Shown here: piece by piece, positions 14,837 through 46,330 of the stretch
How the letters are laid out: each line of letters opens with the position of its first letter
Position numbering within the stretch: the stretch's first letter is position 1
DNA from: an uncultured Ignavibacteriaceae bacterium
GTDB taxonomy: Bacteria > Bacteroidota > Ignavibacteria > Ignavibacteriales > Ignavibacteriaceae
Reading direction: 5' to 3'
NCBI GenBank assembly: GCA_963809415.1
Contig: CAWEJJ010000005.1
Span: 41,573-105,572, forward strand
DNA: 64,000 bases
Notes under the pieces: model-generated
What the model saw: only the letters and a program-made list of their open reading frames with translations
Database searches by the model: none
Told to the model about the DNA's origin: nothing
Position numbers and translations under genes: made by a program

Positions 14837-14856
14837 ATAAATTCACTTTGTATTGA

Positions 14857-15723: not shown

Positions 15724-15727
15724 CTAA

Positions 15728-16381: not shown

Positions 16382-16391
16382 ATTCAGTTCC

Positions 16392-16688: not shown

Positions 16689-16697
16689 CGAAAACCT

Positions 16698-18976: not shown

Positions 18977-18985
18977 TTTAAAAAA

Positions 18986-19780
18986 TTACCTCGTTTTAAT
19001 AATACCGCTTTTACGTTTTGATAATAAAAAGAAAATAAAAATCCCAACCATAAATAGAATAATCACACCGAAAATTCTTGTTAGACTTATAACATAAGTC
19101 TTCCCTTCCGGATCATATCTGAAACAAAATTGCAATACTTTGGCAATAGTCGGTGAAATTTTTCCCTCAGATGTTTCTATAACTGCCATTTTAAAATCAA
19201 ACGGAAGAATTCCAAATCCACTTCGATCAGAAAAGCTTGGAATAAGATATCTGCAGATTTTCCCTTCTTTATCCACAAAGATAAATGCACCGGCATGTAA
19301 AAAATCTTTTCCCTGTCTTTTAAAATGAAATCCCGTTGCATCTGCTACTTTTTTAATAGTTGCACTATCGCCAGTCAAAAATCTCCAGCTTTCAGGTGGA
19401 ATATTTTTATCTATAACTTTTAAATAAATCTGTTTTCTAGTACTCGCATCCTTTGGAGTTTCAAATTGATCCATACTAATTAAAACTATGTTATAGTCAA
19501 CTCCGGGGACAAGATCAGATTTATTTATAACGTCTGATAATTCCATTAAAAGCGGACTACATATTCCCGGACAATTATAATAGACAAAAGCAAAAACGGT
19601 AGGTTTGGTAAATAAATCTTTTAACAACACCGTGTTACCATTTTCATCTTTAAATGATTCTTGTAGCGGAATTGTTTTACCAAGTTGTTCATCAATACCA
19701 ACTTCAATTGGCTGTTGAATTGCAACCGCAATTGAAATAAGAAAGGTATATGATACTATAACTAATAAAATATTTTTCAT
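18986..19780 (-). CDS. SCO1/SenC-family copper chaperone with extra C-terminal domain and TM anchor
   Basis: 264 aa with a signal peptide and a thioredoxin fold carrying the CPGIC copper motif. It lies immediately upstream of coxI. Confidence 0.8.
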   Translation of the reverse strand: MKNILLVIVSYTFLISIAVAIQQPIEVGIDEQLGKTIPLQESFKDENGNTVLLKDLFTKPTVFAFVYYNCPGICSPLLMELSDVINKSDLVPGVDYNIVLISMDQFETPKDASTRKQIYLKVIDKNIPPESWRFLTGDSATIKKVADATGFHFKRQGKDFLHAGAFIFVDKEGKICRYLIPSFSDRSGFGILPFDFKMAVIETSEGKISPTIAKVLQFCFRYDPEGKTYVISLTRIFGVIILFMVGIFIFFLLSKRKSGIIKTR

Positions 19781-19793
19781 AGTGAATAAAAAG

Positions 19794-20723
19794 CTAAATT
19801 AGTTTAATCATAAAATTGTATAACGATGCCCATTCATCTTTTTTCAAATTAAATACTGTACCGTTAAAACCATTCTGGTTTACATTGTTTATAACAAGAT
19901 TAATAAAATCCGAAAGATTCTGCTGCCATCCATTATTCTTCACTAAAAATGACAAGGCAATTTTAGGATCAGTGGTTACTTTCTTAAAGACTTTAAATCC
20001 ATTTTCATTTGAAAAAGAATTTAAAGTACTTATATCTGATTTAACTTTATTAATCCGATTTTCATTTTCTGAAATTATTAATAAAGCAGCTTTTGCAACA
20101 GGAATTTGTGCTGCAATTTGCTGACCAGCCGATAGATTATATGTTGTATTCAGGGCTTGCAAATCGGCATCTGTATCAGCAGCAGGATCAGGAATAAATG
20201 TTGTTCTGATATAATGAGCTAAGGCAAACTTTTGTTCTGGTAACAGATAATCAAAAGAAACCATAGCGCTTGGGGGTAAACCCTCTTGCAGTGTTGTATA
20301 AATTTCGGAAAGTTTGGTACCATTTTTCCAACCACTCTTGGATGTAAAATTACGAGGTGGCGGATTTAACCCTGTCGAAGCAGGACCATCGCCCTTACCG
20401 TTATTTCCATGACAGGACGAACAATTTGCCTTATAAAGTTTTTCACCTTCAGACAAAAGTTCCGGTGTGGATGTTTTTAATTCCATTACATTAACCGGTG
20501 GAACCACGATTGCATTTTTTACTGGAAGATCTGTTACAATTGTTGAATCCCTTAGAACCGGTGGCACATTCTCTCTTGCTATATTATCAAGATTTTGTAC
20601 GTAATAAATGCCCAAGCCTAAACCGATAATTAGAATATATGGATATAATAATCCAAAAACTGTCCCAGGATTTGCAGCTAGTTGCCGGGTTTTATTTTTA
20701 ATTCCGTTAATTATATCTTTCAT
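19794..20723 (-). CDS. Membrane-anchored monoheme c-type cytochrome
   Basis: 309 aa with an N-terminal TM helix (VFGLLYPYILIIGLGLGIYYV), a single CSSCH heme motif, and a C-terminal domain of about 130 aa of unknown function. It sits between actF and the SCO gene. Confidence 0.7.
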   Translation of the reverse strand: MKDIINGIKNKTRQLAANPGTVFGLLYPYILIIGLGLGIYYVQNLDNIARENVPPVLRDSTIVTDLPVKNAIVVPPVNVMELKTSTPELLSEGEKLYKANCSSCHGNNGKGDGPASTGLNPPPRNFTSKSGWKNGTKLSEIYTTLQEGLPPSAMVSFDYLLPEQKFALAHYIRTTFIPDPAADTDADLQALNTTYNLSAGQQIAAQIPVAKAALLIISENENRINKVKSDISTLNSFSNENGFKVFKKVTTDPKIALSFLVKNNGWQQNLSDFINLVINNVNQNGFNGTVFNLKKDEWASLYNFMIKLI

Positions 20724-20748
20724 AAAAAACCTTGAGTCTCAAATAATT

Positions 20749-21936
20749 TTAGAGATGAAAATCAATACCTCTTTTTAATTTTGGGTCACCGATCGGAACG
20801 ATATTATCCTTTTTAGAACGCCAATTAAACAATAATATCACTAACCCGATTCCAGCAATCGGAAATACTAAATCAATCCAACTAAATACGTATCCATTTT
20901 TCATAATTTCCATATTAGGCATTATCAACCAAAACAAATCGAATAGGTGTGCAAATAACAACCACATTGCTATAAATTTTAAAATCTTTGGATTCTGTTT
21001 TGATGGTTGTGTAAGTAACACAAAATAAGGAACCGCAAATTGAATTATTATCAACGCAATTGAAAAGTAAGCCCAACTTCCATTCCAGCGCGTTAAGAAC
21101 CAAAAAGTTTCTTCGGGTAAATCAGCATACCATATTAATAATAATTGAGCAAAGGCTATGTAAGCCCAAAAATTAACAAACGCGAATAACAATGCCCCAA
21201 GACTGTATAAATGATCATTATTCATCCAGGGGAAATAATTTTTTTCTTTTAACAATACTACGGCAAGTGTTACAGCAGCTAATGCTGCTACAACTGTCCC
21301 GGCAAAATAGTAAACTCCGAAAATTGTTGAGAACCAATGTGGTTGTAAACTCATCATAAAATCTATTGCGGTAAATGTAATGCTAAGTGCAAAAATCAGA
21401 ATAAAGATTGCTGATAATTTTATATTCTTTTTTGTTAATGACTGATCTTTATTGGAATCTTGCTTTCTGGAATTTCTTGCGATCATCCAATAAAACATAG
21501 CCCACAGACCAATAAATACAAATGTTCTTATTACAAAAAAAGTTATGTTTAAGTATGGAGCTTTGCCTTGCAGAATTTTATCATGTGCAACTGCTTCTTT
21601 ATGTGCCCAATGAAAAAGATCATGATTGAATATGAGTATTGGAATCACTAACACTAACAATATTGGGATAAGTCCTGCAAAAAATTCCGGAATTCTTCTA
21701 ATTGGGGTGCTCCAATCTGCACCCGCAACATATTCCAAAGCAACAAGAAAAAGTGAGCCAAGTCCAACACTTACAATCATCATATAAGTAACAAGATAAT
21801 TAAAAACTGCTCTTTCCTGATCAACAAAAAATGCAATTACTGAAAGAATTGTACCTGTAAGAAAAAGTAAAATCCCAATTTTTGCAAAACCGGCAGGTAA
21901 ATCTTTTTTCTGGTAATTAAATTCAGTTTGTGTCAT
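20749..21936 (-). CDS. actF: Alternative complex III subunit ActF (NrfD-like membrane subunit)
   Basis: About 395 aa, polytopic, and last of the act genes. The ATG at 21936 ([12 protein letters not shown]...) is preferred over the upstream TTG at 21963. Confidence 0.75.
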   Translation of the reverse strand: MTQTEFNYQKKDLPAGFAKIGILLFLTGTILSVIAFFVDQERAVFNYLVTYMMIVSVGLGSLFLVALEYVAGADWSTPIRRIPEFFAGLIPILLVLVIPILIFNHDLFHWAHKEAVAHDKILQGKAPYLNITFFVIRTFVFIGLWAMFYWMIARNSRKQDSNKDQSLTKKNIKLSAIFILIFALSITFTAIDFMMSLQPHWFSTIFGVYYFAGTVVAALAAVTLAVVLLKEKNYFPWMNNDHLYSLGALLFAFVNFWAYIAFAQLLLIWYADLPEETFWFLTRWNGSWAYFSIALIIIQFAVPYFVLLTQPSKQNPKILKFIAMWLLFAHLFDLFWLIMPNMEIMKNGYVFSWIDLVFPIAGIGLVILLFNWRSKKDNIVPIGDPKLKRGIDFHL

Positions 21937-23089
21937 TGCTGCCAGTCTCCTTGTTGATCTCAATTAAATCAGAATCGCTTGCATTTTTAGCTCTTTGTAA
22001 AACTCTAATATAATTTACAATTGCCCAGCGTTCATCCCTTGCTATTTGCGATGCATAAGAAGGCATTGCATTTTGTCCGTTTGTTATAATATGATATATC
22101 ATGCCATCACTAAAATCTATTGCTCTTTTTGAATGTAAAGTTGGAGGATTGGGGAATTGTCCTCTAAGTCTGCTGTCGCCATCTGCAAAATAACCATGGC
22201 AAGGGCTGCAAAATGTAAAAAACTTTGCTTTACCTAATTTTAAATTTTCTTTAGTTGGCAAAAATGGATTTGCTAAAACTTTGGGTGGATTCAATTGCCC
22301 TTTATATGGATAAGGAATAAATCCTCTTGCAACAGTACCTTCTACCGGTGTTCGCATACCAAATCCGTCAGCAAAAAGTTCACTTGGTTTTTGGGGATTT
22401 AACTTTTCCTGGTCATCCATCCAATTAAATGGTGTGATATAAAGAAGTTTATTTAAAGTAAAATAAGTTGCACCTGAAACTACTGCTGCTGTTACCAGTA
22501 AAAACAATAAAAATTTAGGTTGAAATATGGAATAAGTTTCCTCTTCAGGATAATAAATCATTTCAACATTTAATGGATGGAGCTTCTGAAAAAAATCCGT
22601 AACAGATTTTTCATCGAACTTTGCATCTGATGCTTCAACAATAACTCCATATTTATCAGCCGAAACACTTTTCATATAGTTTGTGTCGTGTAATGGATGT
22701 TTATTATTTGGCAGTTTAAAGAATAAGGCTATCATAGCAATTACAGTTGATACAGTTGCAACTAAAACTGTAACCTCAAATGTAATAGGAATGAGTGCAG
22801 GAAATGCAAAAAATGGTTTTCCGCCTATTACTATTCTATAATTAACCGCCATCGTCCAGTACATAAATAACAAAGCCATAGCTCCACCGGTTAAACCCAT
22901 TACCAAAGTTATGAATCCAAGTTTTGAGGGCTTCAATTTCATTGCGCTATCCATACCGTGAACTGGATATGGAGTGTTTACATCAAACTTGGTAAAACCT
23001 GATTCAACAACTTTTTTGACAGCATTAATTACTTCATCCGGAGTTTTAAATGTGGCAGCCACACCAAATAGTTTTTTTTCACTATTCAT
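21923..23089 (-). CDS. Fused ActD (DUF3341-like) and ActE (monoheme cytochrome c) subunit of alternative complex III
   Basis: The N-terminal half ([20 protein letters not shown]... plus 2 TM) is ActD-like. The C-terminal half has one TM plus CSPCH and NAMPSY (Met ligand), and is ActE-like. The two halves form a single uninterrupted ORF. Start placed at the ATG at 23089 (MNSEKKLFG...). Confidence 0.75.
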
Positions 23090-24458
23090 TATGATCCCCT
23101 CCATGATATGTTGGCTGTGCACCTTCAGCAACTGCTTTGATTTCTGAAATTGAAACTACAGGTAATGCTTTTGTGAAAAGGATTACTAAGGTAAAGAATA
23201 AACCAAAACTTCCGAGTAAAATTCCAAAATCAACAATAGTTGGTTTATAATATGCCCACGCTGAAGGAAGAAAATCACGACTAAGTGATGTAACGGTAAT
23301 TACAAATCTTTCAAACCACATACCCACATTCACTAAAATTACAATCACCAGCATTAATGGAATTGATCTTCTAATTTTCTTAAACCAGAAAAGTTGTGGA
23401 AAGATTACATTGCAGCTTACCATAATCCAGTATGCCCACGCATATGGACCGATTGCCCTGTTAATAAATACAAATTGTTCCACAGATACACCGCTGTACC
23501 ATGCAATAAAAAATTCCATTGCATAGGCGTATCCTACCATTGATCCTGTGGCAAGAATTATTTTATTCATTTTTTCCAGATGATCAAGAGTAATTATGTG
23601 TTCAAGATTAAATATTTTTCGTACAAAAATTAAAACTGTTACAACCATTGCGAATCCGGAAAAAATTGCACCTGCTACAAAATATGGTGGAAAAATCGTT
23701 GTGTGCCAGCCAGGTAAAATTGAAACTGCAAAATCAAAACTTACAATTGTATGTACTGAAAGAACTAAAGGGGTCGCAAATCCAGCTAATAGTACATAAG
23801 CTTTTTCATAATGCGTCCAATGTCTATTTGAATGCATCCATCCCAATGAAAAAATGGAATAAATAGTTTTCTTAAACTTTGTTGTAGTTCTATCTCTAAG
23901 TGTTGCAAAGTCCGGGATTAAACCAACGTACCAGAAAAACAATGAAACAGTAAAATATGTGGAAACTGCAAACACATCCCACACAAGCGGTGATGTAAAA
24001 TTAACCCATATACTATGTTGATTTGGATAAGGGAGCAAATAACCTGCAAGCCACGGACGTCCCGTGTGGATTACCGGAAATATACCTGCACACATAACAG
24101 CAAAGATCGTCATCGCTTCCGCAAATCTTGCTATACCGGTACGCCATTTTTGTCTCAATAAAAATAAGATTGCAGAAATCAAAGTACCAGCATGACCCAT
24201 ACCAACCCAAAAGACAAAATTTACAATTGCAAATGCCCAGCCAACTGGCTGATTGTTACCCCACATTCCTATTCCATAATAAAAAGTATAACCAACCGAA
24301 ATGGCACCAATAAGCAATGCAGTTAAAGAAATTGAAAGCGCAATAAAAAATTTTTTATCGGGCTTTGTACCCATTGGTTTGGCTACCAATTCTTCAATTT
24401 GTGCAAGGGTCAATCTTCCCGCAACAACAGGCGATTCTTTGGAGTAATCAATATTCAC
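23082..24458 (-). CDS. actC: Alternative complex III subunit ActC (NrfD/PsrC-like quinol-interacting membrane subunit)
   Basis: 458 aa with about 10 TM helices and NrfD-family character. Its start overlaps the actB stop. Confidence 0.85.
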
Positions 24459-27400
24459 TATGCTTCCTCTGAATGGATGTTTCTGAGTTTAGCTATATAT
24501 GTAACATTTGGCTTAATGTTAAGCTCTTCAAGCACATAATAGCCTAGCTCGTGATTTCTATATTTATAAAATTCTGAATTTTTATCGTTTATATCACCAA
24601 AGTGAATAGCATTTGTGCTGCAAGAATCCTGGCAAGCTGTTGTTACATCAGTTCCTTTGAGTTCACGTTTATTATGAGTTGCTTCAGCCCTTGCTTCAGA
24701 AATTCTTTGAACACAGAAAGTACATTTTTCCATAACACCACGTGATCTGACTGTAACTTCAGGATTTTGCATCAATGCAAGTATTGGATTTTCCTGGTAA
24801 CTGTCTTTGAAGTGATCTCTAAAATTGAAGAAATTAAATCTTCTCACTTTATATGGACAGTTATTAGAACAGTATCGAGTACCAACACATCTATTATATA
24901 CCATCTGGTTTAATCCATCAGGGCTGTGAGAAGTTGCGGCTACCGGGCACACATTTTCGCAAGGTGCTTGATCGCAATGTTGGCAAAGCATCGGCTGGAC
25001 ACTTACATTTGGTTCATTTACAGTACCCGAATAATATCTATCTATTCTTAACCATTGCATTTCTCTGCTCTTTAATACCTGATCTTTTCCAACAATAGGA
25101 ATATTATTTTCAACATTACAAGCAATCACACAATCACCACAACCGGTACACTTATTTAAATCAATTGCCATTCCCCATTTAACTCCATTATAGGGATGAG
25201 GTTCATAAACACTTGGCAAGTCTTCGCTTTGTTTCTCTTTAATAAATTTTGGATTTGTTATATAACCGGTAACAGTACCTTCCTGAATAATATGTCTCTT
25301 TTGAGCTAAATCTTTTGTCCGTTCATCATCAAAAGCATGGTGTTCTTGAGATGAAGCTAATTCATAAGTTTCACCGGTTTTCTTTATAGATGCGTTCGAA
25401 TAGATTAACGGAGATTGAACATTTTTTTTCGACAGTAATATATTTGCATTAAATCCGGCACCGCTTGCAACTGTGCCTGAGTGTTCTCTTCCATATCCTA
25501 ATTCGATAACAATAACATCATCGGCGGTACCTGCCTGCAGAAAAACAGGTAAAATTATTTTTCTTTCTTCAACCGATACTTCAATAACGTCATTATTCTT
25601 TAGATCTAATGATTTGCATGTATTTTCGGATAGTGCCGCATAATTATCCCAGGTTATTTTAGATAGTGGATGTGGGAGTTCTTGTAACCAGCCATTATAA
25701 GCTAATCGACCATCACCAACCTGATAGCTTTCCTTTAAGACAACTGTATAACCATTTACAGATTGAACTTCATTATAAAGTAAAGAAATATTATTTAATT
25801 GTACTGGAGCTGGGTTTTCAGCTACTTCATTTGTAAAAACAATTCCATCATGCAATGCACCAAGCCAAAACTGATCAAAATCTAATTCTGATTTTAGGGT
25901 TGGATAAATTGTTGTTTCCCAATTCTTCATCAAATAATCATGATAAAGTTTTTCTGAAAAAACTTCAGTATTACCATTAATCCAGGTTAATAATATTGCT
26001 TCTTTTTGTCTCGTGTTTTTTAGTGGTGTAATTACCGGTTGCTGTAAAGAAATTATACCAGTTCTTGTCTTTGCATCTCCCCACGCTTCAAAGTTATGAT
26101 TTATTGGAAGTACATATTTACTAACTTGTGTAGTTTCACTCTGTCTTTCAGTAAGAGTAACAACAGTATCAACTTTTTTTAATGCAGTTTCATAACTATA
26201 ATCCTGAGCAAGGTGATAAATAGGATTACAATCAAAATGAATTACAGCAGCTACTTTTCCATTATTCATTTTGGAAACTAATTCTTCTAAATCTTTTGTT
26301 GGTGTTAGTTGCAATAAATTATAATTAGCTGAATCTGTTCTAAATAGTTGCGAATTTCCTAATGCGGCATTAAGCAGGTTAACAGCAATATGAACATTTT
26401 CTGGTAATGAATTGCCAGCATCGATAATTATCTTTCCTTTGTTGGATAATAGATCAATGACTAGATGGTTCAGCACTTCCATTTTAACTTTGTATTTAGA
26501 TGCAAATGATGGAAGTGAAAAAGCTGATGTATTTGCAGAAATATTTATTGCCCCTTTTCGCTGAAGTTCATTTATTAAGCTCATCACAAACTCATATTGA
26601 GCTTGGGGACGTAATCTTAATCTGTAATCAGAATTTAAACCTGTAAGACTAAGGTTACTTTCAACGACATAAAGTCTATTAAATTTTTTAGTGTCAACAT
26701 TTCTTCCTTCTGTAAACAACCTTGCGGTTTCAATTCTGTTATTTTCAACACCTAAGAAATCCGATTCGAGTGAAAGAATAACTTTTGCTTCATCCCATTT
26801 TAATAAAGGGTAATTGCCGGATCCATAGCATTTTTGCCATGCGGAATTTTTTATTGAATCATTAAACAGTTCATAAGAATAAATTTTTACGCTCGGATAT
26901 TTTTGTTTGAAATCATCTAATACTTTTAAAGTTGTAGGCGATGTAACTGTATGCGTTATAATTGCAATCTCATTATTCCCTGCCCCATTTAAGGCTTCAA
27001 GAATATAATCATTTGCCTCCTTCCAATTTGTCTCTACAAAACCAGAACCATTTTTCTTCAGCGGGGAACCCAATCTTTCAGGATCATAAAGATTTAAAAT
27101 ATTTGCCTGTCCTTTAGAACAAATCTTTCCCTTGTTTACAGGATGTTCAGGATTCCCATCAACTTTAATTGGTCTCCCTTCACGAGTTCTTATTAATATT
27201 CCGCAAGCATTTGAACAAACTGTACATGTTGATGCATAAAAATTAGGTTTCCCGATCGTAATTTCTTCTGGTTTAACATTGTAAGGAACTATCTCACCTT
27301 TATCACGATAATCAGTACAAGCAGTGCCGGCTAACGCTGCCGAAGCTCCTAAAAGTGCGAAAAATTTTCTTCTAGAAATTGATGAAAGATGTAAGGGATC

Positions 27401-27559
27401 AAAGTCATCAGTTGTACCTTCTTTAAATTCATGATTTCGTGCTTCTATTACTTGGGGATCATTATAAAGATCTTCAAAACTTCTCCAATAATTTACATCA
27501 GTATTAGATGATTCGGATGAATTTATATTATCAGATTTAGGTTCAGACATTCTTATCAC
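24458..27559 (-). CDS. actB: Alternative complex III subunit ActB (molybdopterin-oxidoreductase-like domain fused to 4-cluster FeS domain)
   Basis: 1033 aa with an N-terminal YWRSFEDL motif and a Tat-like [17 protein letters not shown]. The C-terminal ferredoxin-like clusters are [25 protein letters not shown] and [12 protein letters not shown]. An alternative ATG start at 27550 (MSEPKS...) is likely. Confidence 0.9.
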
Positions 27560-27719
27560 CTATTTTTTTTCTATTAACAGCAAGAGGATTAAGCTGAACT
27601 TTAATTTCTTTTTTATTCTTTTCAATTTTTTTTGAAATTATGTTCATTGGGAAAGATTTATATATCACTAATCCCAATGCACTTAATGAAATTGAAGTAA
27701 AGAATTTTTTTCTGTTCAT
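27543..27719 (-). CDS. Possible small ORF (58 aa) between actA and actB, below the ORF-track cutoff
   Basis: My own translation gives [58 protein letters not shown]. It has a signal- or TM-like N-terminus and a lysine-rich tail, and it fills an otherwise unexplained 190-nt gap inside the act operon. Confidence 0.3.
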   Translation of the reverse strand: MNRKKFFTSISLSALGLVIYKSFPMNIISKKIEKNKKEIKVQLNPLAVNRKKIGDKNV

Positions 27720-27751
27720 ATAAAGTCTGTTAAATTAATTTTTATTTTTTG

Positions 27752-28324
27752 TTACCTATGGCAAGCGGAACAATATTCAGGTCCCGGTTTAATTTTATCT
27801 TTTAATTCAGGAAATTTGTCATGTACATTGCGATGACAATTCAAACAACTGCCCATAGTAAAAGAATTCATCTGTCCGACTTTTTCCATTTGAGTAATTT
27901 CACCATGACAGGCAGTACAATTAATTCCTTTGTTAATATGTACTGAATGATTGAAATAGGCATAATCGGGAACTTTATGAATTCTTTTCCATGGAATAGG
28001 TTTATCCTCGCGATAATACTGTGTTAGCTTAATAATTTCAGGTCTATCTTTACGAGCAACCGAGTGACAATTCATACAAGTTGCTGCTGCAGGAACAGTT
28101 GCAAATCTGGTTTTTTCTACCCCGATGTGACAATACTGACAATCAATTTTCATATCGCCGGCATGAAGTTTATGCGAAAAGTTTATGGGTTGAGTAGGAG
28201 AATAACCAACACCATCGCGTGCAGCCCTGGATCCATAATAAGTAACGGTAAAAGATGAAATAACAACAAAGAGTGTAACAGGCAATCTGTTTCTAAAAAT
28301 ATAATCAAGAAAAGATTTTTTCAT
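27752..28324 (-). CDS. actA: Alternative complex III subunit ActA (pentaheme cytochrome c)
   Basis: 190 aa with an N-terminal anchor and five CxxCH motifs (CQYCH, CMNCH, CTACH, CLNCH, CSACH). It is the first gene of the act cluster. Confidence 0.85.
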   Translation of the reverse strand: MKKSFLDYIFRNRLPVTLFVVISSFTVTYYGSRAARDGVGYSPTQPINFSHKLHAGDMKIDCQYCHIGVEKTRFATVPAAATCMNCHSVARKDRPEIIKLTQYYREDKPIPWKRIHKVPDYAYFNHSVHINKGINCTACHGEITQMEKVGQMNSFTMGSCLNCHRNVHDKFPELKDKIKPGPEYCSACHR

Positions 28325-28725: not shown

Positions 28726-29010
28726 TTAAAAAATATTCTTTAGTATTTGATATGTTATAAAGGCGGTAAGTATTAGAATTCCAAGATAGAGCAATAAATT
28801 TTTATAGGTTTTTGCACCTAAGATTCTCGTAATTCTAAAACCGCGCCATCCGCAATTATTACAACGAAATGTTCTATAAAAAGTAAAATGATTAAAAAAT
28901 TTTTCTTTTGCGTTATGGGAATGTGATCTTCTAATTGTATTAGTAAAACCACATGATGGACATTTATCAAACATAGGATCATTATTGTAATTTGATTTAT
29001 TACTTTTCAT
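28726..29010 (-). CDS. Small zinc-ribbon protein with C-terminal TM helix (hypothetical)
   Basis: 94 aa with two CxxC pairs (CPSCG, CNNCG) and a C-terminal hydrophobic helix LLLYLGILILTAFITYQIL. Confidence 0.5.
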   Translation of the reverse strand: MKSNKSNYNNDPMFDKCPSCGFTNTIRRSHSHNAKEKFFNHFTFYRTFRCNNCGWRGFRITRILGAKTYKNLLLYLGILILTAFITYQILKNIF

Positions 29011-29049: not shown

Positions 29050-30705
29050 TCATAATCTATATTTAAGCAGATTGCTATAAACTTTATTGTTGCTTAACAG
29101 GTTAATAGCAGTAGAAAATTGATTATCATATTTCAACCGTTCACGAATCCCGGCATCAATTCCTGAAAATCTATGTGCTAATTCAATTCTTAATTCTGCA
29201 ATAATGTCCTGTTTATTTTTATCAAATTCAAAATCAAACAAACTGGAAATTTGTTCTTTCAATTTTTTAACTGTCTCTTCAATTTTTTCTGAATTTTCTT
29301 CTTTATCTAATAATTTAACAACTTCGTTTAATTTTTTTTCAGCTAAAGATTGATAACTATAATCTGAAGCGATTAAATATTTCTTAAACTCGCTTAGTAT
29401 TTTATTATCATTTAACTTATAAAATGAAGCATTCTCATTTGCATAATAATATTTATCAGCAAAATTAAAAACTAACCCTTTGGCTAAAAGATCTTTTATT
29501 AAATCACTTTCGATTACTTCATTAACTGTTGTGTCAGGAGTAATTCCACCTGCGCTATATACAATTCTTTTATTATCAGTAGTAAATGCATCTGTTTTCA
29601 AGGAGTCAGGATATGTAATTACACTATTATCTTTCGAATAATCCACTTTCTGAATACATCTTCCGCTTGGTGTATAATATCTTGCAGTAGTTACCTTTAA
29701 GGAAGTATTAAAACTTAAAGGAGTAATTGTTTGAACTAATCCTTTCCCAAAAGATTGCGTACCTAATACAATACCCCGATCATGATCCTGTATTGCACCA
29801 GCAACAATTTCCGAAGCTGAAGCACTACCGCCATTTATTAAGACAATTAATTTTTCATTTCCTGCCAAAGGTTCTTCACTTGCAAAATATTTTTTTTCAC
29901 TTTCAGAGCTTCTTCCTCTTGTAGATACAATAAGCAAATCTTTATTTAAGAATTTATCACAAACATCTACAGCAACATCTAATAATCCACCCGGATTATC
30001 CCGTAAATCGAGAACAATGGATTTTATTTCTCTTTCTTCTCTAAGTTTTATTAAAGCATTCCTAATTTCATCACTGGCAGATCGGCTAAAGTTGGATAAC
30101 TTTAAATAAACGTTCCCTGAGTTTTCTGGATAAAAATCTGCAAACACAAGTGTTCTCACAATTATTTCTTCTCTCTTAAGATTAAACGTAAGTGTGTCTT
30201 GTTCAGATGTTCTTAATACTTTTAATTTAACATCAGTACCGGGCTCTCCTTTTACAAGAGAAGAAATATCGTCAATTATTCCAGGATTAACATTAGTTTC
30301 ATTAATTTTTATAATCACGTCTCCAATTCTAACACCTTGTTTTTGTGCAGAGTATCCATCCAGTACTTCCAGAACAGTTACATTATCGTTCCGAACACCA
30401 ATTGATACGCCAACACCACCATATTTACCATTGGTTAAAACATCAATATCATCTTGATTTTTTTCATCGATAAAAACTGTATAGGGGTCAAGTTTATTAA
30501 GCATTCCTTTAATACCTGCACGCATAAATTCCTGCGGGTCAATTTCATCAACATAATTGAATGAAATTTCTTTATAAACTTTTCCAAAGAGTTCAAGGTT
30601 TTTACTTATCTCAAAATAAATATCACTTTTGCTTACAACAAAACCAAATGTAAGTAACACAATAAATGATAATGATGTAAACAAAATTATTTTTCGTCGC
30701 TTCAT
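29050..30705 (-). CDS. ctpA: S41-family carboxyl-terminal processing peptidase
   Basis: 551 aa with a signal anchor, a PDZ region (GVRIGDVIIKINETNV), a catalytic Ser context GGSASASEIVAGAIQD, and a Lys context SFGKGLVQ. Confidence 0.9.
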   Translation of the reverse strand: MKRRKIILFTSLSFIVLLTFGFVVSKSDIYFEISKNLELFGKVYKEISFNYVDEIDPQEFMRAGIKGMLNKLDPYTVFIDEKNQDDIDVLTNGKYGGVGVSIGVRNDNVTVLEVLDGYSAQKQGVRIGDVIIKINETNVNPGIIDDISSLVKGEPGTDVKLKVLRTSEQDTLTFNLKREEIIVRTLVFADFYPENSGNVYLKLSNFSRSASDEIRNALIKLREEREIKSIVLDLRDNPGGLLDVAVDVCDKFLNKDLLIVSTRGRSSESEKKYFASEEPLAGNEKLIVLINGGSASASEIVAGAIQDHDRGIVLGTQSFGKGLVQTITPLSFNTSLKVTTARYYTPSGRCIQKVDYSKDNSVITYPDSLKTDAFTTDNKRIVYSAGGITPDTTVNEVIESDLIKDLLAKGLVFNFADKYYYANENASFYKLNDNKILSEFKKYLIASDYSYQSLAEKKLNEVVKLLDKEENSEKIEETVKKLKEQISSLFDFEFDKNKQDIIAELRIELAHRFSGIDAGIRERLKYDNQFSTAINLLSNNKVYSNLLKYRL

Positions 30706-31328
30706 ATATATTTTACACCTTCCAAAGTATTTATTTCATATACTATCTTATGATGAATTTGTTCTATTGATTCAGTTCCATCGAGAACCCGGAAACGACT
30801 TTCTCTCGTCGCTAATTCCAGGTAACCAACTCGTACTTTTTCATAAAAATTATTATTAGACAATTCAATTCTATCCAAATCAGAACGGGATTTATTTCTT
30901 TTGCGTTCCAATGCAACATTTGTCGGGATATCAATTATAAATGTTAAATCGGGTATTGTATTACCGATTGCCAAATTATGGATATTTATTATAGCATCAA
31001 GTGTCAAACCCCGTCCATAACCTTGGTAGGCTGTTGAAGAGTCATGAAATCGATCTGATATAACGTAATAATCAGCTTCAAGATATGGACGGATTACTTC
31101 TCTAACTAATTGCGCACGGCTCGCAGAGAATAAAAATATTTCCGTTTCCATTACCATAGCATTATTTTTTTTATCAAGAAGTATATCTCTAATCTTTTCA
31201 GATATTACCGTGCCACCGGGTTCTCGAATTAAGTGAACATTCTTATTCTGTTTTAAAAGATATTCTTTTAGTAATTCAACTTGTGTGGATTTACCACAAA
31301 AATCTATTCCTTCAAATGTAATGAACAT
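30702..31328 (-). CDS. tmk: dTMP (thymidylate) kinase
   Basis: 208 aa with P-loop FEGIDFCGKSTQ, a DRF motif, and a LID region. Confidence 0.9.
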   Translation of the reverse strand: MFITFEGIDFCGKSTQVELLKEYLLKQNKNVHLIREPGGTVISEKIRDILLDKKNNAMVMETEIFLFSASRAQLVREVIRPYLEADYYVISDRFHDSSTAYQGYGRGLTLDAIINIHNLAIGNTIPDLTFIIDIPTNVALERKRNKSRSDLDRIELSNNNFYEKVRVGYLELATRESRFRVLDGTESIEQIHHKIVYEINTLEGVKYI

Positions 31329-31349: not shown

Positions 31350-32264
31350 TTATTCAAATTTCTTAATAATGTATTTGAGATCCGAAGGTTTAGTAAACAA
31401 CAGTTCAGTATTGGGAGGAATATTAACTTTCGGTTTAATACTTCCCAGGGTATCAAGTATTACATCTTTATAATCTATTGATGCAGTAATTTGATTAGCA
31501 GTTACTTTTCCAATAATATTAATTCCACCTCTTAAACTGCAGCTAATTGTGTTTGGAATAAGAACAACCTCGCGGTCAACAGGAATATTTTTAACTGTTA
31601 CTTTTATCCCATCAAAAGAATTATCGACTATTCTTTGAACATTTAAAGTTAATTCGACCTTTTGTTGTTGAAATTCAAAACCAGGAATATTTTCTAATTC
31701 TGTAATAATTTTCTCTTTACTATCAAGAGAGGTATAAAAAACTTTTTGTGTCTTAATCAAAAAAGTTTTTTCTATTATATTTTTAGGACCTGCGGCTATA
31801 ATTGAATCGGGATAAATTTTGATTGGAGTAGCCAAACCATAGCCAGGCTGAAACGTAATATCCGTATTTGATTCAACTTTTATTTTCTTAAAAACTAATT
31901 TTTCAACTTTTAAAGAAATATTTCTCGGTGCAATATCGATGACTGAAATACCTGAACCAAGCCACGTATTTTCAGGAATTTGATCATAAGCATTAACGGT
32001 AATATTCCCACTATCATCATCAGCCGATACTAAAAATTCAGTCGCTGGATTCAACCCCAGATTAAAAAGCTGCCATCCTTTCGCTTTTAATTTTATTGCT
32101 ACATTTGGTGGGTTTGTAATTCCGCAAACATATCCTTTTGGCGTATTGATAACTCCTACAGCAAGATCATAAGAATTATAAAATTGATCCGAAAGAGTTA
32201 TTGAGCCCCACACAAGAATAGCAAATACTAAAGAAAAAAATATTATTGTTACTTTATGTTTCAA
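31350..32264 (-). CDS. YbbR-like domain-containing protein
   Basis: 304 aa with an N-terminal TM followed by repeated beta-rich modules of about 85 aa, with the V.V.G....I..I pattern typical of YbbR/CdaR repeats. This is a pattern-level call only. Confidence 0.55.
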   Translation of the reverse strand: MKHKVTIIFFSLVFAILVWGSITLSDQFYNSYDLAVGVINTPKGYVCGITNPPNVAIKLKAKGWQLFNLGLNPATEFLVSADDDSGNITVNAYDQIPENTWLGSGISVIDIAPRNISLKVEKLVFKKIKVESNTDITFQPGYGLATPIKIYPDSIIAAGPKNIIEKTFLIKTQKVFYTSLDSKEKIITELENIPGFEFQQQKVELTLNVQRIVDNSFDGIKVTVKNIPVDREVVLIPNTISCSLRGGINIIGKVTANQITASIDYKDVILDTLGSIKPKVNIPPNTELLFTKPSDLKYIIKKFE

Positions 32265-32305: not shown

Positions 32306-33112
32306 TTAATTTAATCTTTTAAATAAATCAACCAACTCATCTCGTGTAGCACGTGAAATTTGCCTACCCTTAATCGGAAAATTTTCAAACTCACGGGCAT
32401 AGTGCCTTAACTTGTGTACATTCATTTCTTTTACTAATGAAAAGTTAATTTTGGAATAATTTAATTCGATATTTTTATTTCCCTTTATCCTTTTCGTAGA
32501 ATCTATCATTTCACTTTTTGTTTCTTTCTTAGATAATCCCAAAGCTTCTTTACGCAATCTTTCAATTGTACTTAACGATTTTACTGAAGCTACACTTTGT
32601 TCAACAATGATTTTTGATTCAGGATTATTTTTCTCTTTAATATCAATGGCTACCTGATCTTTGAAATTTTTTGTTCCTTCTGAATCAACTTTTTTAATCA
32701 AATCATCTACTGGAGCTTTAATGTTTGTCTTATTGGAAATAATATTATTTTTTTTATTAATAATTTCTCTATCAGATAGCTCCAAACCTGATTCGCTTCT
32801 TTCCGTTTTTTGTATAGAAATTTGTTTTTCTTTTAAAGTAAATAATTCAGACAAAAGTTCTAACAATTCACTACCAGGATTATCTATTACCGAGTGAGCA
32901 TAAATCTCTCCTACTCTTTTCCCGGCATCTACTGCTGATTCTACTGCTGATTTAACATATTCAGAATCACCTGAAACAAATAATGAAACTATACCGTTAT
33001 CCAATTTTTTAACTCCAATTATTTCTATAGGAGAATTTTTAAGGATTACATCAGCGGCTTCAATTAAAGTTATTAATCCCTTAGATTCAATTAATCCAAT
33101 AGAATTATTCAT
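32306..33112 (-). CDS. BMC (bacterial microcompartment shell, BMC-H type) domain protein with a 180-aa C-terminal extension ending in a HeH/Rho_N-like motif
   Basis: Residues 1-90 (SIGLIESKGLITLIEAADVILKNSPIEIIGVKKLDNGIVSLFVSGDSEYVKSAVESAVDAGKRVGEIYAHSVIDNP) align position by position with PduA/EutM. A K/E/S/N-rich linker follows, then MNVHKLRHYAREFENFPIKGRQISRATRDELVDLFKRLN. Confidence 0.8.
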   Translation of the reverse strand: MNNSIGLIESKGLITLIEAADVILKNSPIEIIGVKKLDNGIVSLFVSGDSEYVKSAVESAVDAGKRVGEIYAHSVIDNPGSELLELLSELFTLKEKQISIQKTERSESGLELSDREIINKKNNIISNKTNIKAPVDDLIKKVDSEGTKNFKDQVAIDIKEKNNPESKIIVEQSVASVKSLSTIERLRKEALGLSKKETKSEMIDSTKRIKGNKNIELNYSKINFSLVKEMNVHKLRHYAREFENFPIKGRQISRATRDELVDLFKRLN

Positions 33113-33396
33113 AAGCCATTTCTTTCCAGATTAAATTTTAGAAGCAAATCTTTATGGGGCATCGGAATTATATGAGAACTTCTGAATCCGTCTGTAGAAT
33201 TTAAAACGTCTGCTCCATTTTGAAGTGCTTTACGAATTGCTCCCAATTCACCTTTTATAAAAACCGAAACAATTCCATCTCCCAAAAATTGCTTACCAAT
33301 AAATTTCACACCATTTGTTTTTTTAATTTCATTAATCGCTTTTAATGAACCAGAGAAGCTGTTTGTTTCTAATATGCCTAAAGATTCAAGTGGCAA
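33109..33396 (-). CDS. BMC-H (bacterial microcompartment shell) domain protein
   Basis: 95 aa. LESLGILETNSFSGSLKAINEIKKTNGVKFIGKQFLGDGIVSVFIKGELGAIRKALQNGADVL...SSHIIPMPHKDL matches the PduA pattern ALGMVETKG...AADAMVK...GSGLVTVIVRGDVGAVKAA...VHVIPRPH. A 4-nt ATGA overlap links it to the next BMC gene. Confidence 0.8.
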   Translation of the reverse strand: MPLESLGILETNSFSGSLKAINEIKKTNGVKFIGKQFLGDGIVSVFIKGELGAIRKALQNGADVLNSTDGFRSSHIIPMPHKDLLLKFNLERNGL

Positions 33397-33461
33397 AAGC
33401 GTGCTCCCTAAATAATTTTTGACATTAAAAAATAGACTGTATAAAATGCAAAGTCAATTAG

Positions 33462-33893
33462 TTAATTTCTTCTTACGGAATCTAAATACTCCTGCAATAT
33501 TATTGAGGCGGAATTCATATCAACTAAAGATTTGTCCTGTCTTTTCTTTTTGCTTGAAACAGATTGCAAAATTTTTTGTTCTGCAATTACAGAAGTATAT
33601 GTTTCGTCCCAAAGAATAACTTCTAATTTGAATTTAGCTTCTAAATCCGATTTAAATTTCTTTACACTTTCTACAATGGAAGTTGGTGATACTTTAAATT
33701 CATTCGGAATTCCAAGAATGATTTTAATAATTTCTTTTTCGTTTATAATTTTTTCTAGTTCGAAAAACTTTTCATTATCATTCTTAATAGTCTTATAAGA
33801 ATACGCAAAGGTTTTTAATGGATCGGAGAGCGAAATGCCAATTCTTTTTCTGCCAAAATCAATCCCCATAATTCGTGTTTCATCAAATGGCAT
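33462..33893 (-). CDS. ruvX: Holliday junction resolvase-like protein RuvX (YqgF)
   Basis: 143 aa with IMGIDFGRKRIGISLSD (the YqgF N-terminal acidic motif) and a C-terminal DE..TS...A pattern. Confidence 0.85.
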   Translation of the reverse strand: MPFDETRIMGIDFGRKRIGISLSDPLKTFAYSYKTIKNDNEKFFELEKIINEKEIIKIILGIPNEFKVSPTSIVESVKKFKSDLEAKFKLEVILWDETYTSVIAEQKILQSVSSKKKRQDKSLVDMNSASIILQEYLDSVRRN

Positions 33894-33895
33894 AA

Positions 33896-36071
33896 TTAGC
33901 TGCCCTCGAACCTTTCAACATTATAAATCCCCTGCACTTTTTTTAATCTCTCAATTATTCTGTTCAGATGATCAAGATTGTTAACGTAAACGGCAACACT
34001 TCCCTCAAATGCAGACTCACTTGTATTTATATTTATTGATTTAATATTTGTGTTTTGGTAATGTAACAATTGAATGAGATACATCATTAATAATTCCCGG
34101 TCTATCCTTCCCTCTAACAGAAATTCCCGCAACAAATAATGATCCTTCTGCCGCAGGCCATTGAACATTAACTAATTTACTTGCATCGTTTGTCGTTAAG
34201 TTAATTAAGTTGGGGCAGGTTTTCCTATGTATTTTAATACCTTCTCCCACAGTTATATATCCAATTACCGGATCACCAGGAATTGGGTTGCAACATTTCG
34301 CATACGTATAAAGAATACCTGATTTTTTACCATCAACTAAAATTCCACCAATATCTGTTCTTGCAACATTTGCAAACTTCTTAAACTCAGCGTCCTTCTC
34401 ATATTCTTTTTCATCCTTTTGATTGTTAGCAGTTAGCACTTGATCAATATTAATAAAGTTTTGAGCAACTGCCTTAAAGAATTGTCTTGTGTTATCAAAT
34501 TTGTTTGAGTGGGCAATTTGTAAAACATCATCAGAAGTAAAAGAAAGTTTCATTTTTTTTAATTTCTTTTCCCAGATTTCAATTCCGCTATCTACAATTG
34601 CCTGCTCTTCCTTATTTAACCATTTTCTTATTTCATTTTTAGCTTTTTGAGTTTTAACAAACTTTATCCAGTTTTTATTTGGATGCTGGTTTTTTGAGCT
34701 GATAATTTCTACCTGATCACCACTATGCAACTCGGTATCAAGTGGAACAATTTTTCCATCAATCTTTGCCCCGATGCAATGAAATCCGACTTTACTATGA
34801 ATTTCAAAAGCAAAATCCACTGTTGATAGAGCCTAACAGGTAACCTCTTCAAATCACCTTTAGGTGTAAAGACATAAATTTCATCCTGATAAAGATTTAG
34901 TCTAAAATTTTCTAGCAGCTCTTTTTTCTGATCATCCTTAGATGCATTTTCAAAAATATCCCGTATCCAGTTTACCCAGTTTTCAAAATCCTTATCTGTA
35001 GCAGTTTTATTTTCTTTATATTTCCAATGAGCCGCAACACCTTTTTCAGCAACTTCATGCATTTTCTTTGTTCGAATTTGTACTTCAACCAACCTTTCCT
35101 TCAGGTCCAACAACTGTCGTATGAATTGATTGATAGTTATTTGTCTTGGGTATTGAGATATAATCTTTAAATCTATCCGGAACAGGTAAATATATTTGAT
35201 TAACTATACCAAGCGAAGTGTAACATTCATTCCAATTTTCAGTATCAAGAATAATTCTTATCGCAAAAAGATCATAAATTTCTTCAAATGGTTTATTCCT
35301 TCTTACCATTTTTCGGTAAATACTATAAAGATGTTTTGGTCTTCCGCTCAATTCATATTTAAGCTTTGCTTCATCAAGTTTCTCTTTAATAGGTTCAGAA
35401 AACTTTTTGATATAAGATTCTCTGTCTCTTCTTTTTGCTTTTAATTTACGGGCAAGCTCTTCATAAGCTTCACGGTTAAGATATTTGAAGGAAAGATCTT
35501 CCAGTTCCCACTTAACTTTTCCCAATCCAAAACGATGAGCAAATGGAGCATAAATTTCTAAAGTTTCCTGAGCAATTCTTCTTTGTTTATCAGGATTTAC
35601 GAATTCTAAAGTTCGCATATTATGAAGCCGATCCGCAAACTTTACAAGAATAACCCTAACATCCTTCACCATCGAAAGGAGCAGTTTACGATAATTTTCA
35701 GCTTTGTTTATTTCATGACCGCGAAAAATTCCACTGATCTTAGTAACTCCATCAACAATTTCAGCGATTTCTTTGCCAAATTCTCTACTTATTAAATCGT
35801 AATTAAAATCGGTATCTTCAATTACATCGTGTAACAGAGCACTAACAATCGTAACATCATCAAGAGGAAATTCCTCTGCAACAATCATAGCAACTTCGTA
35901 TGGATGCGTAAAGTAAGGTTCACCGGAAGCCCGGACATCATTTTTATGTGCTTCTAAACTGACCTCAAAGGCTTTTGAGATTAATGCTTCATCAACCATA
36001 AGAATATTTTTCTTACAAACCTTTATAAGATTTTCAAGCATTTTTTGATATTTAGGATTGCTAACAGCCAT
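33896..36071 (-). pseudogene. relA: Bifunctional (p)ppGpp synthetase/hydrolase RelA/SpoT homologue, broken into four ORFs by single-base indels
   Basis: Fragments are 35085..36071 (HD hydrolase, HDVIEDT), 34709..35113 (synthetase, VEVQIRTKKMHEVAEKGVAAHWKYK), 34041..34820 (TGS, DFAFEIHSKVGFHCIGAKIDGKIVPL) and 33896..34168 (ACT). The summed length of 725 codons equals a normal RSH protein. Confidence 0.9.
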
Positions 36072-43294: not shown

Positions 43295-46200
43295 TTATTT
43301 AACCACGGCAATTTTGATTACAACAGATTCTGATTTGCCACTAACACCAACAGCCTCAATCCTTGCTAAATATACTCCACTTTGTGTACTTCCAACATTC
43401 CAGATTGTTTCATTATCAAATCCGCCTTTTGCATCATTATTTAACTCTGCAACAAAATCACCAGCAAGATCAAAAATCTTAATGTTAATTTTAGAATCTT
43501 CATTTACAAAATAGCGGATTGCAGTCTCCCCGCCATACACCGGGTTGGGATAATTGTAAGCCTTGTTTATTGGCAAAAATTGGTTTAAGGTATTTGTAGA
43601 TTTTGCAGCTTCAATGAATGATGTATTCTGATTATTGCCGTTCGTTTCAGCCCAATCAGGCGATGTAAATACCGAAGAAATAATCCAAGCCTTAAATTTA
43701 TTATCAGAATTGTATCCGGCTAAGGCTGTTTGTCCTTTATAATTAAACAGAACTGGTTCGGTTATTAAAGGATTACCAAAACTTATTGGAAAACCATCTA
43801 TAAGTTTACCTGTACCACCATCAAATGCATAAACATTGCCAAGGGAATCTGTAACAATTATTTCAGATTTAGAATCACCTTCAATATCAGCAGCAAGCGG
43901 AGTAAATATTAGACTTTGAGTTGAATTCTTAAGTACAGGGAAATTATCTGCTGAATAACCTGTTAAATTATAAGCATTTAACTCGTTACCGTTATTTATT
44001 AGGATGTAGTTATTTCCGTCTTGTTTAATATCTGCAAGAGAAAAATTATTTACAGATTGCTTATTATCAAGTTCAAATGATGATTTTATCTCGCCATTTG
44101 ATATTAAAATAATCTTATCGCTCTTTGTAGATATTAAAGAATAGTTTTCTCCATTGTTATCGATCGATGTTGCCAAATCTATTAAAGATTCATTGGTAAA
44201 ATTTATTTTACCACCATCTGATGAATAATAATATGATGGATCTGGAGGGACAGGACCCATTGTGCCGTTAATATATGCAATAGCAGAAATTGTTGTTGAT
44301 GATGCTGATATTTTAGCTATTGAATAGGATGGCTCAACTAAAATTGAATCTTTTCTAACTGGATTTTGATTCAAAATGGATAATAGATCGTAAACATAAA
44401 GTGCGCCGTTTGATGTACCTAATATTAAATCTAAACCATAATAAATATTTTTTCTTATAACAGGTGCTGCTGTAATGTTATAAGATAAATCAAAACTTCC
44501 TTTAATTATGTTAGAAGGTTGTTTAATCCAGTAATTAACTGAACTTCCTTTTGTTCCAACAACAAATGTCACCTCTCCAGTTGTTATTGAAGCTACTTTA
44601 AATCCTTCAGAAAACTCAGGGATTCTATCAATAATATTTTTACCGTCAGAAATTAATAAGTTAGTACCTTCTTCAAATGCGAACAAAACAGAATCACCAT
44701 CTTCAATAACAGAAATATTATCAATTAAGTTATTAAATGTGGATGTAAATATTGGTTTTATAACTGAATCACCATACGCAACATTAAAGCTCATTCTGTT
44801 AGAAATAGGAGTGAAATTTTTTATGGTGATTAGACTGTTTGCACCGCTATTTGTATTTGTATTTGGAGTTGTATTTTTATCAAATTTATTTTTATAAAGC
44901 GTTGCTTTATTACCTGAATACCAAAAATCTTCTTGCGTACCTTCACCAATAACAACATCACCAAAAACAGTTGTAAATTCTTCGCCGATATCCTGAATAC
45001 CGTCGGCTTCCGCAACATCTACTCCACGTCTGTTTTTATCTGTGTTGACTTTATTTTCAGCCAGTTTTTCTTTAATAACGTTTTCATCAATATGCCAGAT
45101 AACAATTCCATTTCCGGGTAAAGCCCAATCAAATTCATTAACATCAAGTATAACTCCTTTTAAGGAATCTGTATCGTAGCTGTAAAAACCTGTAGTGTCT
45201 TTAAGAAATGTTTTTGTAAAAATATTTCCATCAGATTTAATGGTCAGTTTAGCACCATCATTAAAAACATTTCTTTGTCTGTTCTCAATTAAAAAATATT
45301 CAGAAGAATTGAGAGGTACTTTTAAAATTACTGTGTCAGCTAAAGAAGCAGCTAAAACCGGGACAAGACTAATATCATAATTATTGGAAGAAACAGTAAC
45401 TGGTTCAGTCCAACCTAAATAAATTTTCTCCCAGGCAGATGGCTCAGGTGGAAAAACACCATTGTATGCAAAAATTGCCTGACCATCCATCAACCCAAAC
45501 CTGCCTATTGCACTTAATCCGGTTTCAGTATCAAAAAGATCGGGTAAACCTAAATAACTTCCTACACTGGCAGCTAATAAGCCATTGATGGTAATTTCAA
45601 ATAAAAACTTACCTGTAATAGCGTCTAATTCCCTGCTCTCTGTTTCCGGGATAATCATGCTGTTATTAACTTTGAATGATCCATTCGATACCGAAAAGCC
45701 ATCAAAAGTTTGCCCAAAAATATTTTTGAAAGCATTTTCATTAAGATAAACTGAGGGCAAATCACGCTCATTACCTAAACTGCCGGGTAAAGTAATATCT
45801 CTTCCAACACCTGCATGGAAAATTAAAAATACATTGTAATCGGAAAATTTAAATCCAGGATTCATTTCATCTGCTTTAGTCCAAACTTCTTGAGCAAATT
45901 GTCCGAGTGGTGTAAAATCATTAGAGCCAGGGGTTGGGGAATAATTTCTCATTGTATTTGAAACCGAAAAAGTATCAGGCAGAATAGTAAACTGCACATT
46001 AACTTTTCCGTTAGAAACTTTTTGATAATAATTTTTTACAAATGTTAGATGAGATTCAAAGTAATCTTTATCGTGCGGCAGAGGGTCTAATATGGAACTA
46101 CCATAGTTTTGAGAATAGATTGAACCAAATTTCCCATTCCCAAAAGTTGCTCCATCACGATCTTCTTGAAAGTTAACCATAACTGCTAAAATTTTAACGG

Positions 46201-46324: not shown

Positions 46325-46330
46325 ACTAAA

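Follow-up and report, generated by a model that had tools for sequence, protein, structure and literature searches.

Why do two genes for BMC shell proteins lie among housekeeping genes in the genome of an uncultured Ignavibacteriaceae bacterium? The pair, here named ORF A and ORF B, is situated in the 64-kb window analyzed in this work, i.e., the whole stretch of 64,000 nucleotides. An initial annotation, made from the sequence alone, described it as an orphan pair and offered two explanations: the pair could be a satellite shell locus, or the shell fold could be used here for something other than a metabolosome, which would be undescribed. Here, we compare both proteins with known shell proteins, follow the pair through 120 related loci, and weigh these explanations against a third one, namely that the pair belongs to a type of BMC that has already been catalogued.

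Results

Profile searches with PF00936 matched both ORFs over the entire model (positions 1 to 75 of 75), with 48.6 bits (E = 8e-13) for ORF A and 66.4 bits (E = 2e-18) for ORF B at a gathering score of 24.5. Full coverage in the canonical, non-permuted order was used to define a BMC-H protein, and both ORFs show it. A full-length BMC-H fold had been proposed for both ORFs beforehand, with failure of PF00936 on either one as the counterevidence to look for; with two whole-model matches above the cut-off, this proposal is borne out. In the model that AlphaFold built for ORF B from 31 homologues, residues 1 to 91 form a BMC domain (pLDDT of ~90). Using Foldseek, these residues were superposed on the BMC-H proteins PduA, EutM, CmcC, and HO (Haliangium) with TM scores of 0.85 to 0.93 and an rmsd of 1 to 2 Å. 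At the level of profile match (ORF A) and of profile match plus predicted model (ORF B), this demonstrates a hexamer-type BMC fold, and both proteins probably form hexamers. The NCBIfam models gave sub-threshold matches only for both ORFs (CsoS1, EutM, CcmO, and EutK), and the two are therefore BMC-H proteins but orthologous to no named shell protein.

The stop codon of ORF A overlaps the start codon of ORF B in the sequence ATGA at positions 33109 to 33112, as had been annotated, and the two genes are translationally coupled. The coordinates of the pair, its segments, and its neighbors are summarized in Table 1. More than 340 full-length homologues of ORF B with 256 to 302 amino acids were found, and their named sources are Ignavibacteria, Ignavibacteriales, and Ignavibacterium MAGs. 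A second large branch with shorter proteins (208 to 255 amino acids) comes from Melioribacteraceae and relatives.

Table 1. Features of the BMC-H locus in the window, with dN/dS values from the comparison of the window with one close relative
Feature	Position	Strand	Description	dN/dS
ruvX (YqgF)	33462-33893	minus	PF03652, 121.6 bits; directly upstream of the pair	
Promoter-like block	33429-33457	minus	TTGACT-17 nt-TATTTT, from a consensus scan; 5 nt past the ruvX stop	
Shine-Dalgarno-like sequence	33403-33408	minus	GGGAGC; 6 nt 5' of the ORF A TTG	
ORF A	33109-33396	minus	95 aa, TTG start; single-domain BMC-H shell protein	0.30
ORF B, whole	32306-33112	minus	268 aa; extended BMC-H	0.39
ORF B, BMC-H domain, residues 1-91	32840-33112	minus	PF00936, 66.4 bits; pLDDT ~90	0.26
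ORF B, K/E/S-rich linker, residues ~92-179	32576-32839	minus	Predicted disordered	0.56 (first linker, residues 93-178)
ORF B, short helix, residues 180-193	32534-32575	minus	LSTIERLRKEALGL; flanked by two disordered stretches	
ORF B, helix plus second linker, residues 179-222				0.64
ORF B, basic helical mini-domain (end domain), residues 223-268 (~47 aa)	32309-32446	minus	Conserved	0.09
YbbR-like gene	31350-32264	minus	304 aa; directly downstream of the pair	
tmk	30702-31328	minus	Pfam	
S41 C-terminal processing protease (ctpA)	29050-30705	minus	Pfam	
Neighboring genes				0.02-0.23

Residues at the hexamer edge and at the pore were compared in an alignment with PduA, EutM, CsoS1A, and the HO BMC-H. 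ORF A carries the edge motif KTNG (KSAN in PduA), PMPH at the position of the PduA motif PRPH, and the pore loop LGDG; the corresponding sequences of ORF B are KNSP, DNPG, and LDNG. From the PduA triad K26/N29/R79, the Lys alone is kept, with Asn and Arg changed to G and M in ORF A and to P and N in ORF B. The initial annotation had correctly recognized the edge Lys and where the pore loop lies, but its motif description made the proteins look more canonical than they are, since the Asn and the Arg of the triad are replaced in both.

A census of 109 loci, with positions read against PduA, revealed that this is a property of one lineage. At 50 of the 109 loci (Melioribacter type), K..K, PRPH, and the pore GGG mark the short protein as a canonical "basal" hexamer. 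Neither protein is canonical in 58 loci, including the window; here, K.. is combined with P(L/M)PH in the short protein, whose pore G(D/E)G is acidic, and the long protein has K..P with D/N replacing the Arg. According to the 2021 BMC catalog, a "basal" BMC-H with KAAN and (P/A)RPH occurs at least once in each BMC type (Sutter et al. 2021, PMC8217296). These interface motifs, which define the "basal" BMC-H and not membership in the BMC fold family, are absent from both proteins at the 58 of 109 loci that make up the window's lineage. Because neither protein keeps them, canonical tiling is unassured in this lineage.

The pair is embedded in a same-strand run of genes, in which tmk and ctpA follow with tight spacing (gaps of -4 to 41 nt). 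Its order, relA/spoT, ruvX, BMC, extended BMC, ybbR-like, tmk, and ctpA, agrees with the one given previously, with the addition that three frame changes interrupt relA/spoT in the present assembly. The 304-aa YbbR-like protein of the window has no Pfam match itself, and its orthologues carry PF07949 (YbbR). Elsewhere in the window, we observed genes for efflux components, a Ser/Thr kinase, a PP2C phosphatase, trigger factor, and ClpP, for cytochrome oxidase, alternative complex III, Der, and Upp, and for type IX secretion components, C25 peptidases, and ExbBD/TonB.

For comparison, 120 related loci with a total of 1.4 Mb were collected, of which species-representative genomes contributed 33, metagenomes 80, and exact-protein look-ups the remainder; neighbors were counted only at loci with enough flanking sequence. 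Whether relatives keep the ruvX-BMC-BMC-ybbR neighborhood had been suggested as a check, and the result goes further than could be foreseen from one sequence: ruvX lies directly upstream of the pair in 98/98 loci and the ybbR-like gene directly downstream in 110/112. Also, relA/spoT precedes ruvX in 84/84 loci, and tmk (83/85) and the S41 protease gene ctpA (70/70) are located further downstream. This order persists at ORF B identities as low as ~30%. An ORF A orthologue directly upstream of the long gene was found in 109 of the 120 sources, all of them with two BMC-domain ORFs; the other 11 have one such ORF and are incomplete contigs.

Six-frame HMM scans of the 64-kb window detected neither a BMC-P nor a third BMC-domain ORF; the BMC-P HMM had been validated by recovery of the HO-type BMC-P at an E value of 1e-29. 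Pfam analysis of the ORFs of at least 90 aa in the window found no aldehyde dehydrogenase, PTAC, glycyl-radical, B12, or RuBisCO enzymes. The scans of the window thereby agree with the earlier remark that a vertex protein and cargo enzymes are missing nearby. BMC-P, BMC-T, and PduS/T were absent from the window and, at all 120 loci (1.4 Mb), up to a distance of 10 kb from the pair.

The spacer between ruvX and ORF A is 65 nt long and harbors a promoter-like block and a Shine-Dalgarno-like sequence (Table 1). In an alignment of some 30 distinct loci, among them that of Melioribacter, TTGAC(T/A) and TA(T)TTT are conserved in register upstream of the pair, and GGGAGC is near-invariant at the Shine-Dalgarno-like position. 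From its sequence, the TTGACT/TATTTT block is a putative promoter, and these conserved blocks in the spacer make it probable that the pair is served by a promoter of its own within the co-directional run. No intrinsic terminators were detected on the coding strand from der to the small ORF after ctpA, which hints weakly at co-transcription of the gene run. The fixed genomic address and the promoter-like block of the pair argue for steady rather than substrate-induced expression.

Alignment and AlphaFold model agree in dividing ORF B into five segments. Following the BMC domain, the linker has pLDDT values below 50 at residues 99 to 176, contains no conserved columns, and differs in length between homologues. 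The short helix after it has the consensus LSTIERLRxEALGL, in which T182, I183, R185, L186, E189, A190, and G192 are invariant among 31 homologues, and residues 182 to 190 are predicted to be helical with a pLDDT of ~85. A second stretch of predicted disorder separates this helix from the end domain, which is characterized by the motif NVHxLRxxAR....FPIxGRxISxANRxxL...F. In the AlphaFold model, the end domain consists of four short helices (pLDDT 83 to 94), and thirteen of its columns are invariant among 36 diverse members.

An exhaustive search of 1.84 billion representative proteins with a profile of the tail recovered the domain in 441 clusters (50% identity). Among the best 150 of these 441 matches, all proteins of at least 200 aa carry a BMC domain at the N terminus; it is lacking in 28 matches, all of them short fragments. 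Judged by sequence, the end domain is thus exclusive to BMC-H proteins among the matches listed (the best 150 of 441). We also considered a docking domain, i.e., a tail that is common to the shell protein and candidate cargo, and rejected this idea, as the listed matches of at least 200 aa all carry the BMC domain.

No significant match to the end domain was obtained in Pfam, among PDB sequences, or with Foldseek. Rho_N was the commonest sub-threshold Pfam match (7 of the 36 members; best E value, 0.0014; always under the gathering score), and SAP and Ish1 gave one sub-threshold match each among the 36 members. These sub-threshold matches are a hint that the end domain may be of the helix-extension-helix (HeH) type. 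No HTH family was detected in the tail.

To assess selection, dN/dS values were calculated according to Nei-Gojobori for one sequence pair, the window and its close relative L121 (dS of ~0.2) (Table 1). In this comparison, the most constrained segment of ORF B is the end domain (0.09). Identity is 45 to 55% for the pair versus 70 to 90% for its neighbors. These values indicate that both genes are functional and under purifying selection and that they evolve faster than the neighboring genes.

Discussion

The isolated position of the pair is best explained by a type of BMC that is already on record. In the 2021 catalog, FRAG1 is described as a shell-protein-only type that is most prominent in Ignavibacteria and whose genes are scattered over the genome (Sutter et al. 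2021, PMC8217296). According to the same text, "fragmented" types have shell genes in up to six genomic places and their enzymes are not identifiable (PMC8217296, Suppl. Data 2); neither enzymes nor encapsulation peptides were found there for these types (PMC8217296). FRAG1 genomes are described there as having a BMC-P triplet (green, grey, and orange clades) and sometimes a PduS/PduT pair, and the trees include FRAG1 BMC-P as well as a 229-aa FRAG1 BMC-H (A0A1G0T956) from Ignavibacteria MAGs (PMC8217296). A comparison of lengths showed that members of 228 to 229 aa, i.e., of the same length class, exist in the family studied here. The HO-type BMC-P clade appears as sister to FRAG1 BMC-P in the catalog (PMC8217296); in our search with the Haliangium BMC-P as query, the 120 matches listed were all at least 73% identical, with Haliangium and Kofleriaceae as named sources. 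Melioribacter roseus has seven BMC-P genes across five loci (Axen et al. 2014) and, as found here, carries the same syntenic BMC-H pair.

The pair corresponds to this description in taxon, architecture, and isolation. The named homologues and related loci come from Ignavibacteriaceae, Ignavibacteriales, and Melioribacter MAGs; the 95-aa ORF A is accompanied by the 268-aa ORF B with its disordered linker and ordered end domain; enzymes of known BMC types are absent from the 64-kb window, and a BMC-P or third BMC gene is absent within 10 kb of the pair at the 120 loci. By this fit to the catalog description, we regard the pair as the two BMC-H of FRAG1, with a probability of about 0.68. Its isolation is a defining property of FRAG1 and no anomaly, and the case adds a new FRAG1 member, not a new kind of system. 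Among the two explanations in the initial annotation, the satellite shell locus came close to the mark, as FRAG1 shows, and the novelty of a shell-independent use did not hold up. An undescribed use of the fold had been raised as a possibility, but FRAG1 in the 2021 catalog already covers both the orphan state and the extended BMC-H; the claim to novelty fails because FRAG1 is catalogued and M. roseus has the same pair together with scattered BMC-P genes. What is new here are the ruvX/ybbR address, the absence of BMC-P genes within 10 kb at the 120 loci, the promoter-like block and ribosome-binding site, the constrained end domain that is restricted to BMC-H proteins among the matches listed, and, in the window's lineage, the loss of Asn and Arg from the edge triad. 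In its accessible text, the catalog makes no mention of the fixed ruvX/ybbR context or of the dedicated promoter-like block (PMC8217296).

As part of FRAG1, hexamers of ORF A and ORF B would tile the facets of a shell, and this shell would be closed by BMC-P pentamers encoded elsewhere, as suggested by the catalog's description of FRAG1 and by M. roseus. Each ORF B hexamer would have six long, flexible tails, each with a conserved helix and, at its end, a basic domain that may be HeH-like. In the Haliangium shell structure, the termini of BMC-H reportedly lie on the concave face, which is the cytosolic side, and with this topology the tails would be displayed outside, on the cytosolic face. 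They could then tether the compartment to a partner, nucleic acid or protein, as has been proposed for EutK. Tethering would be the most likely role of the tail and recruitment of cargo a less likely one; the tail may possibly bind nucleic acid, a reading that rests on the sub-threshold matches.

Alternatively, the pair might be an ordinary satellite that provides extra hexamers, e.g., for tuning of permeability, to an enzyme-bearing locus elsewhere, such as Melioribacter MIC4. A satellite locus has been defined as containing only PF00936 or only PF03319, being contiguous, and being accompanied by at least one non-satellite locus elsewhere (Axen et al. 2014), and two of these three properties are found here (PF00936 genes only; contiguous). 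Ignavibacteria MIC4 main loci are indeed listed in the catalog, including M. roseus MROS_0099-0104 (PMC8217296). However, the MIC4 loci as given there have their own BMC-H genes, and FRAG1 appears as a separate shell-protein-only type beside MIC4 in M. roseus ("2loci_inTaxon") (PMC8217296). In the catalog, 15 MIC4 loci stand against 57 of FRAG1 (PMC8217296), and the extended BMC-H family comprises 441 clusters; since MIC4 loci are few in comparison, most carriers of the pair are unlikely to have one, and we consider a satellite function unlikely. A decaying remnant of a lost microcompartment, now without function, would account for the higher dN/dS of the pair (0.3 to 0.4 versus 0.02 to 0.23 in the neighbors), for its lower identity (45 to 55% versus 70 to 90%), and for the loss of canonical interface residues. 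Yet both frames are intact although the assembly has frame errors elsewhere, dN/dS stays far under 1, with a value of 0.09 for the end domain, the pair is retained at every related locus, and the promoter-like and Shine-Dalgarno-like blocks are conserved, which makes decay hardly credible. We reject a pseudogene in view of dN/dS and universal retention.

If the other explanation from the initial annotation is developed further, the two hexamers of this lineage would be co-expressed with housekeeping genes and use the BMC fold independently of a shell, in pentamer-free sheets, tubes, or a scaffold, and the target of the basic tail would be nucleic acid or a partner connected with RelA, RuvX, or Tmk functions. 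The embedding between ruvX and ybbR/tmk at all loci with enough sequence, even at ~30% identity, would agree with this, as would the observation that neither BMC-P nor enzymes lie close to the pair in the 1.4 Mb of loci. Both paralogues are without the triad residues Asn and Arg, with no "basal" BMC-H in view, and the end domain, which is exclusive to BMC-H among the matches listed, is under strong constraint and has weak hints of a Rho_N/SAP type. The catalog likewise has no enzymes or encapsulation peptides for the fragmented types (PMC8217296). On the other hand, a BMC-P triplet co-occurs with these BMC-H in FRAG1 genomes according to the same text (PMC8217296), M. roseus has many BMC-P genes (Axen et al. 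2014), both proteins keep the edge Lys and the overall fold, and synteny within one lineage may be plain vertical inheritance. We regard such a shell-independent function as improbable. A narrower version, in which the pair may form a constitutive, non-canonical assembly in the Ignavibacteriaceae branch, where two of the three triad residues are lost in both proteins, anchored by its basic, possibly HeH-like tail to nucleic acid or a housekeeping partner and without pentamer-capped shells, appears quite improbable.

If the pair belongs to FRAG1, as we favor, it bears on a group that ranks among the least understood in the 2021 catalog, where FRAG-type BMCs have no cargo, encapsulation peptides, or locus logic (PMC8217296). 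Our analysis provides three experimental handles on FRAG1, namely a fixed address with a promoter-like block, a tail domain found, among the matches listed, in BMC-H only and constrained more strongly than any other part of ORF B, and a large sub-lineage with remodeled edges in both hexamers. Should this derived-edge sub-lineage be pentamer-free, it would show the shell fold naturally employed outside a closed organelle.

Compared with FRAG1 as catalogued, the locus shares the occurrence in Ignavibacteria, the lack of adjacent enzymes, and the separation of BMC-H from BMC-P. It differs in that the short BMC-H of the catalog has the standard interface motifs, which is true of 50 of the 109 loci but not of the window's lineage. 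PduA/PduJ-type canonical BMC-H have the fold, the edge Lys, and the central position of the pore loop in common with both proteins, whereas their pore G-S-G is G-D-G in ORF A and D-N-G in ORF B, and the Asn and Arg of K26/N29/R79 are replaced in both. The cyanobacterial ccmK3/ccmK4 satellites resemble the pair as two adjacent BMC-H genes that are remote from the main locus and under separate transcriptional control. In contrast to the pair, these satellites add to a carboxysome main locus that is defined and has known cargo; FRAG1 is not known to have a main enzyme locus, and one protein of the present pair has a 180-residue tail. In its architecture, ORF B is similar to EutK of the Eut microcompartment, which also consists of an N-terminal BMC-H, a linker, and a small basic helical end domain that is a putative nucleic-acid binder; in EutK, this C-terminal domain is of the helix-turn-helix type. 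The tails are not homologous, however: the NCBIfam EutK model aligns at positions 1 to 88 of 166 only, i.e., with the BMC domain. Because this alignment is confined to the BMC domain, the resemblance is architectural and not one of homology. Furthermore, ORF B has a far longer linker and an extra conserved helix, and its gene is found in the context of housekeeping genes, whereas that of EutK belongs to the eut operon.

Split reading frames

The relA/spoT gene upstream of the BMC-H shell-protein gene pair is distributed over four ORFs, separated by three frame changes. Each of the pieces retains 87 to 89% identity to the intact orthologue of 723 amino acids, and the frame changes look like indel errors of the assembly rather than gene decay. 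The genes for trigger factor and for a C25 (gingipain-like) peptidase are likewise each divided between neighboring ORFs, over which consecutive segments of their Pfam domains are spread, a pattern consistent with additional assembly frame errors.

Gene neighborhoods in the window and in related loci

In loci of the Ignavibacteriaceae type, a long respiratory gene cluster lies directly downstream of the conserved gene run; loci of the Melioribacter type do not have it there. The S41 protease gene is followed by a small ORF for which Pfam look-ups gave no assignment; its product has two CxxC pairs and, at the C-terminus, a hydrophobic helix. Among the first 38 related loci that were compared, most have a homolog with 32 to 60% identity at the same position. 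The window also harbors a kinase/phosphatase pair and a type IX secretion neighborhood.

Features of the window and of two Melioribacter-type loci (L039, L040)
Feature	Position	Strand	Content
Kinase fusion	6984-9633	-	Fusion of a Ser/Thr protein kinase with BNR/Ycf48-like beta-propeller repeats; PP2C phosphatase gene adjoins
Trigger factor	9866-11319	+	
Respiratory cluster	13487-28324	-	Alternative complex III (ActB-like 1033-aa protein, NrfD-like, ActD); cytochrome c oxidase subunits I-IV, SCO1; haem O synthase-like UbiA protein, several cytochromes c
Small ORF	28726-29010	-	94 aa
relA/spoT	33896-36071	-	Frame changes near 35093, 34830, 34066
Type IX secretion	43295-51686	-	PorV-like protein, 1009-aa protein with Por secretion tail, C25 peptidase genes
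Split C25 peptidase	47713-51686	-	
PF01791 aldolase, L039	19126-19995		
PF01791 aldolase, L040	19266-19904		

Aldolase gene in Melioribacter-type loci

No PF01791 (DeoC-family aldolase) gene is present in the window. In Melioribacter-type loci, such a gene is found downstream of the BMC-H pair, at a distance of about 9 kb. The PF01791 family is that of the sugar-processing enzymes discussed for the HO and SPU microcompartment types in the 2021 catalog of Sutter et al. (PMC8217296).
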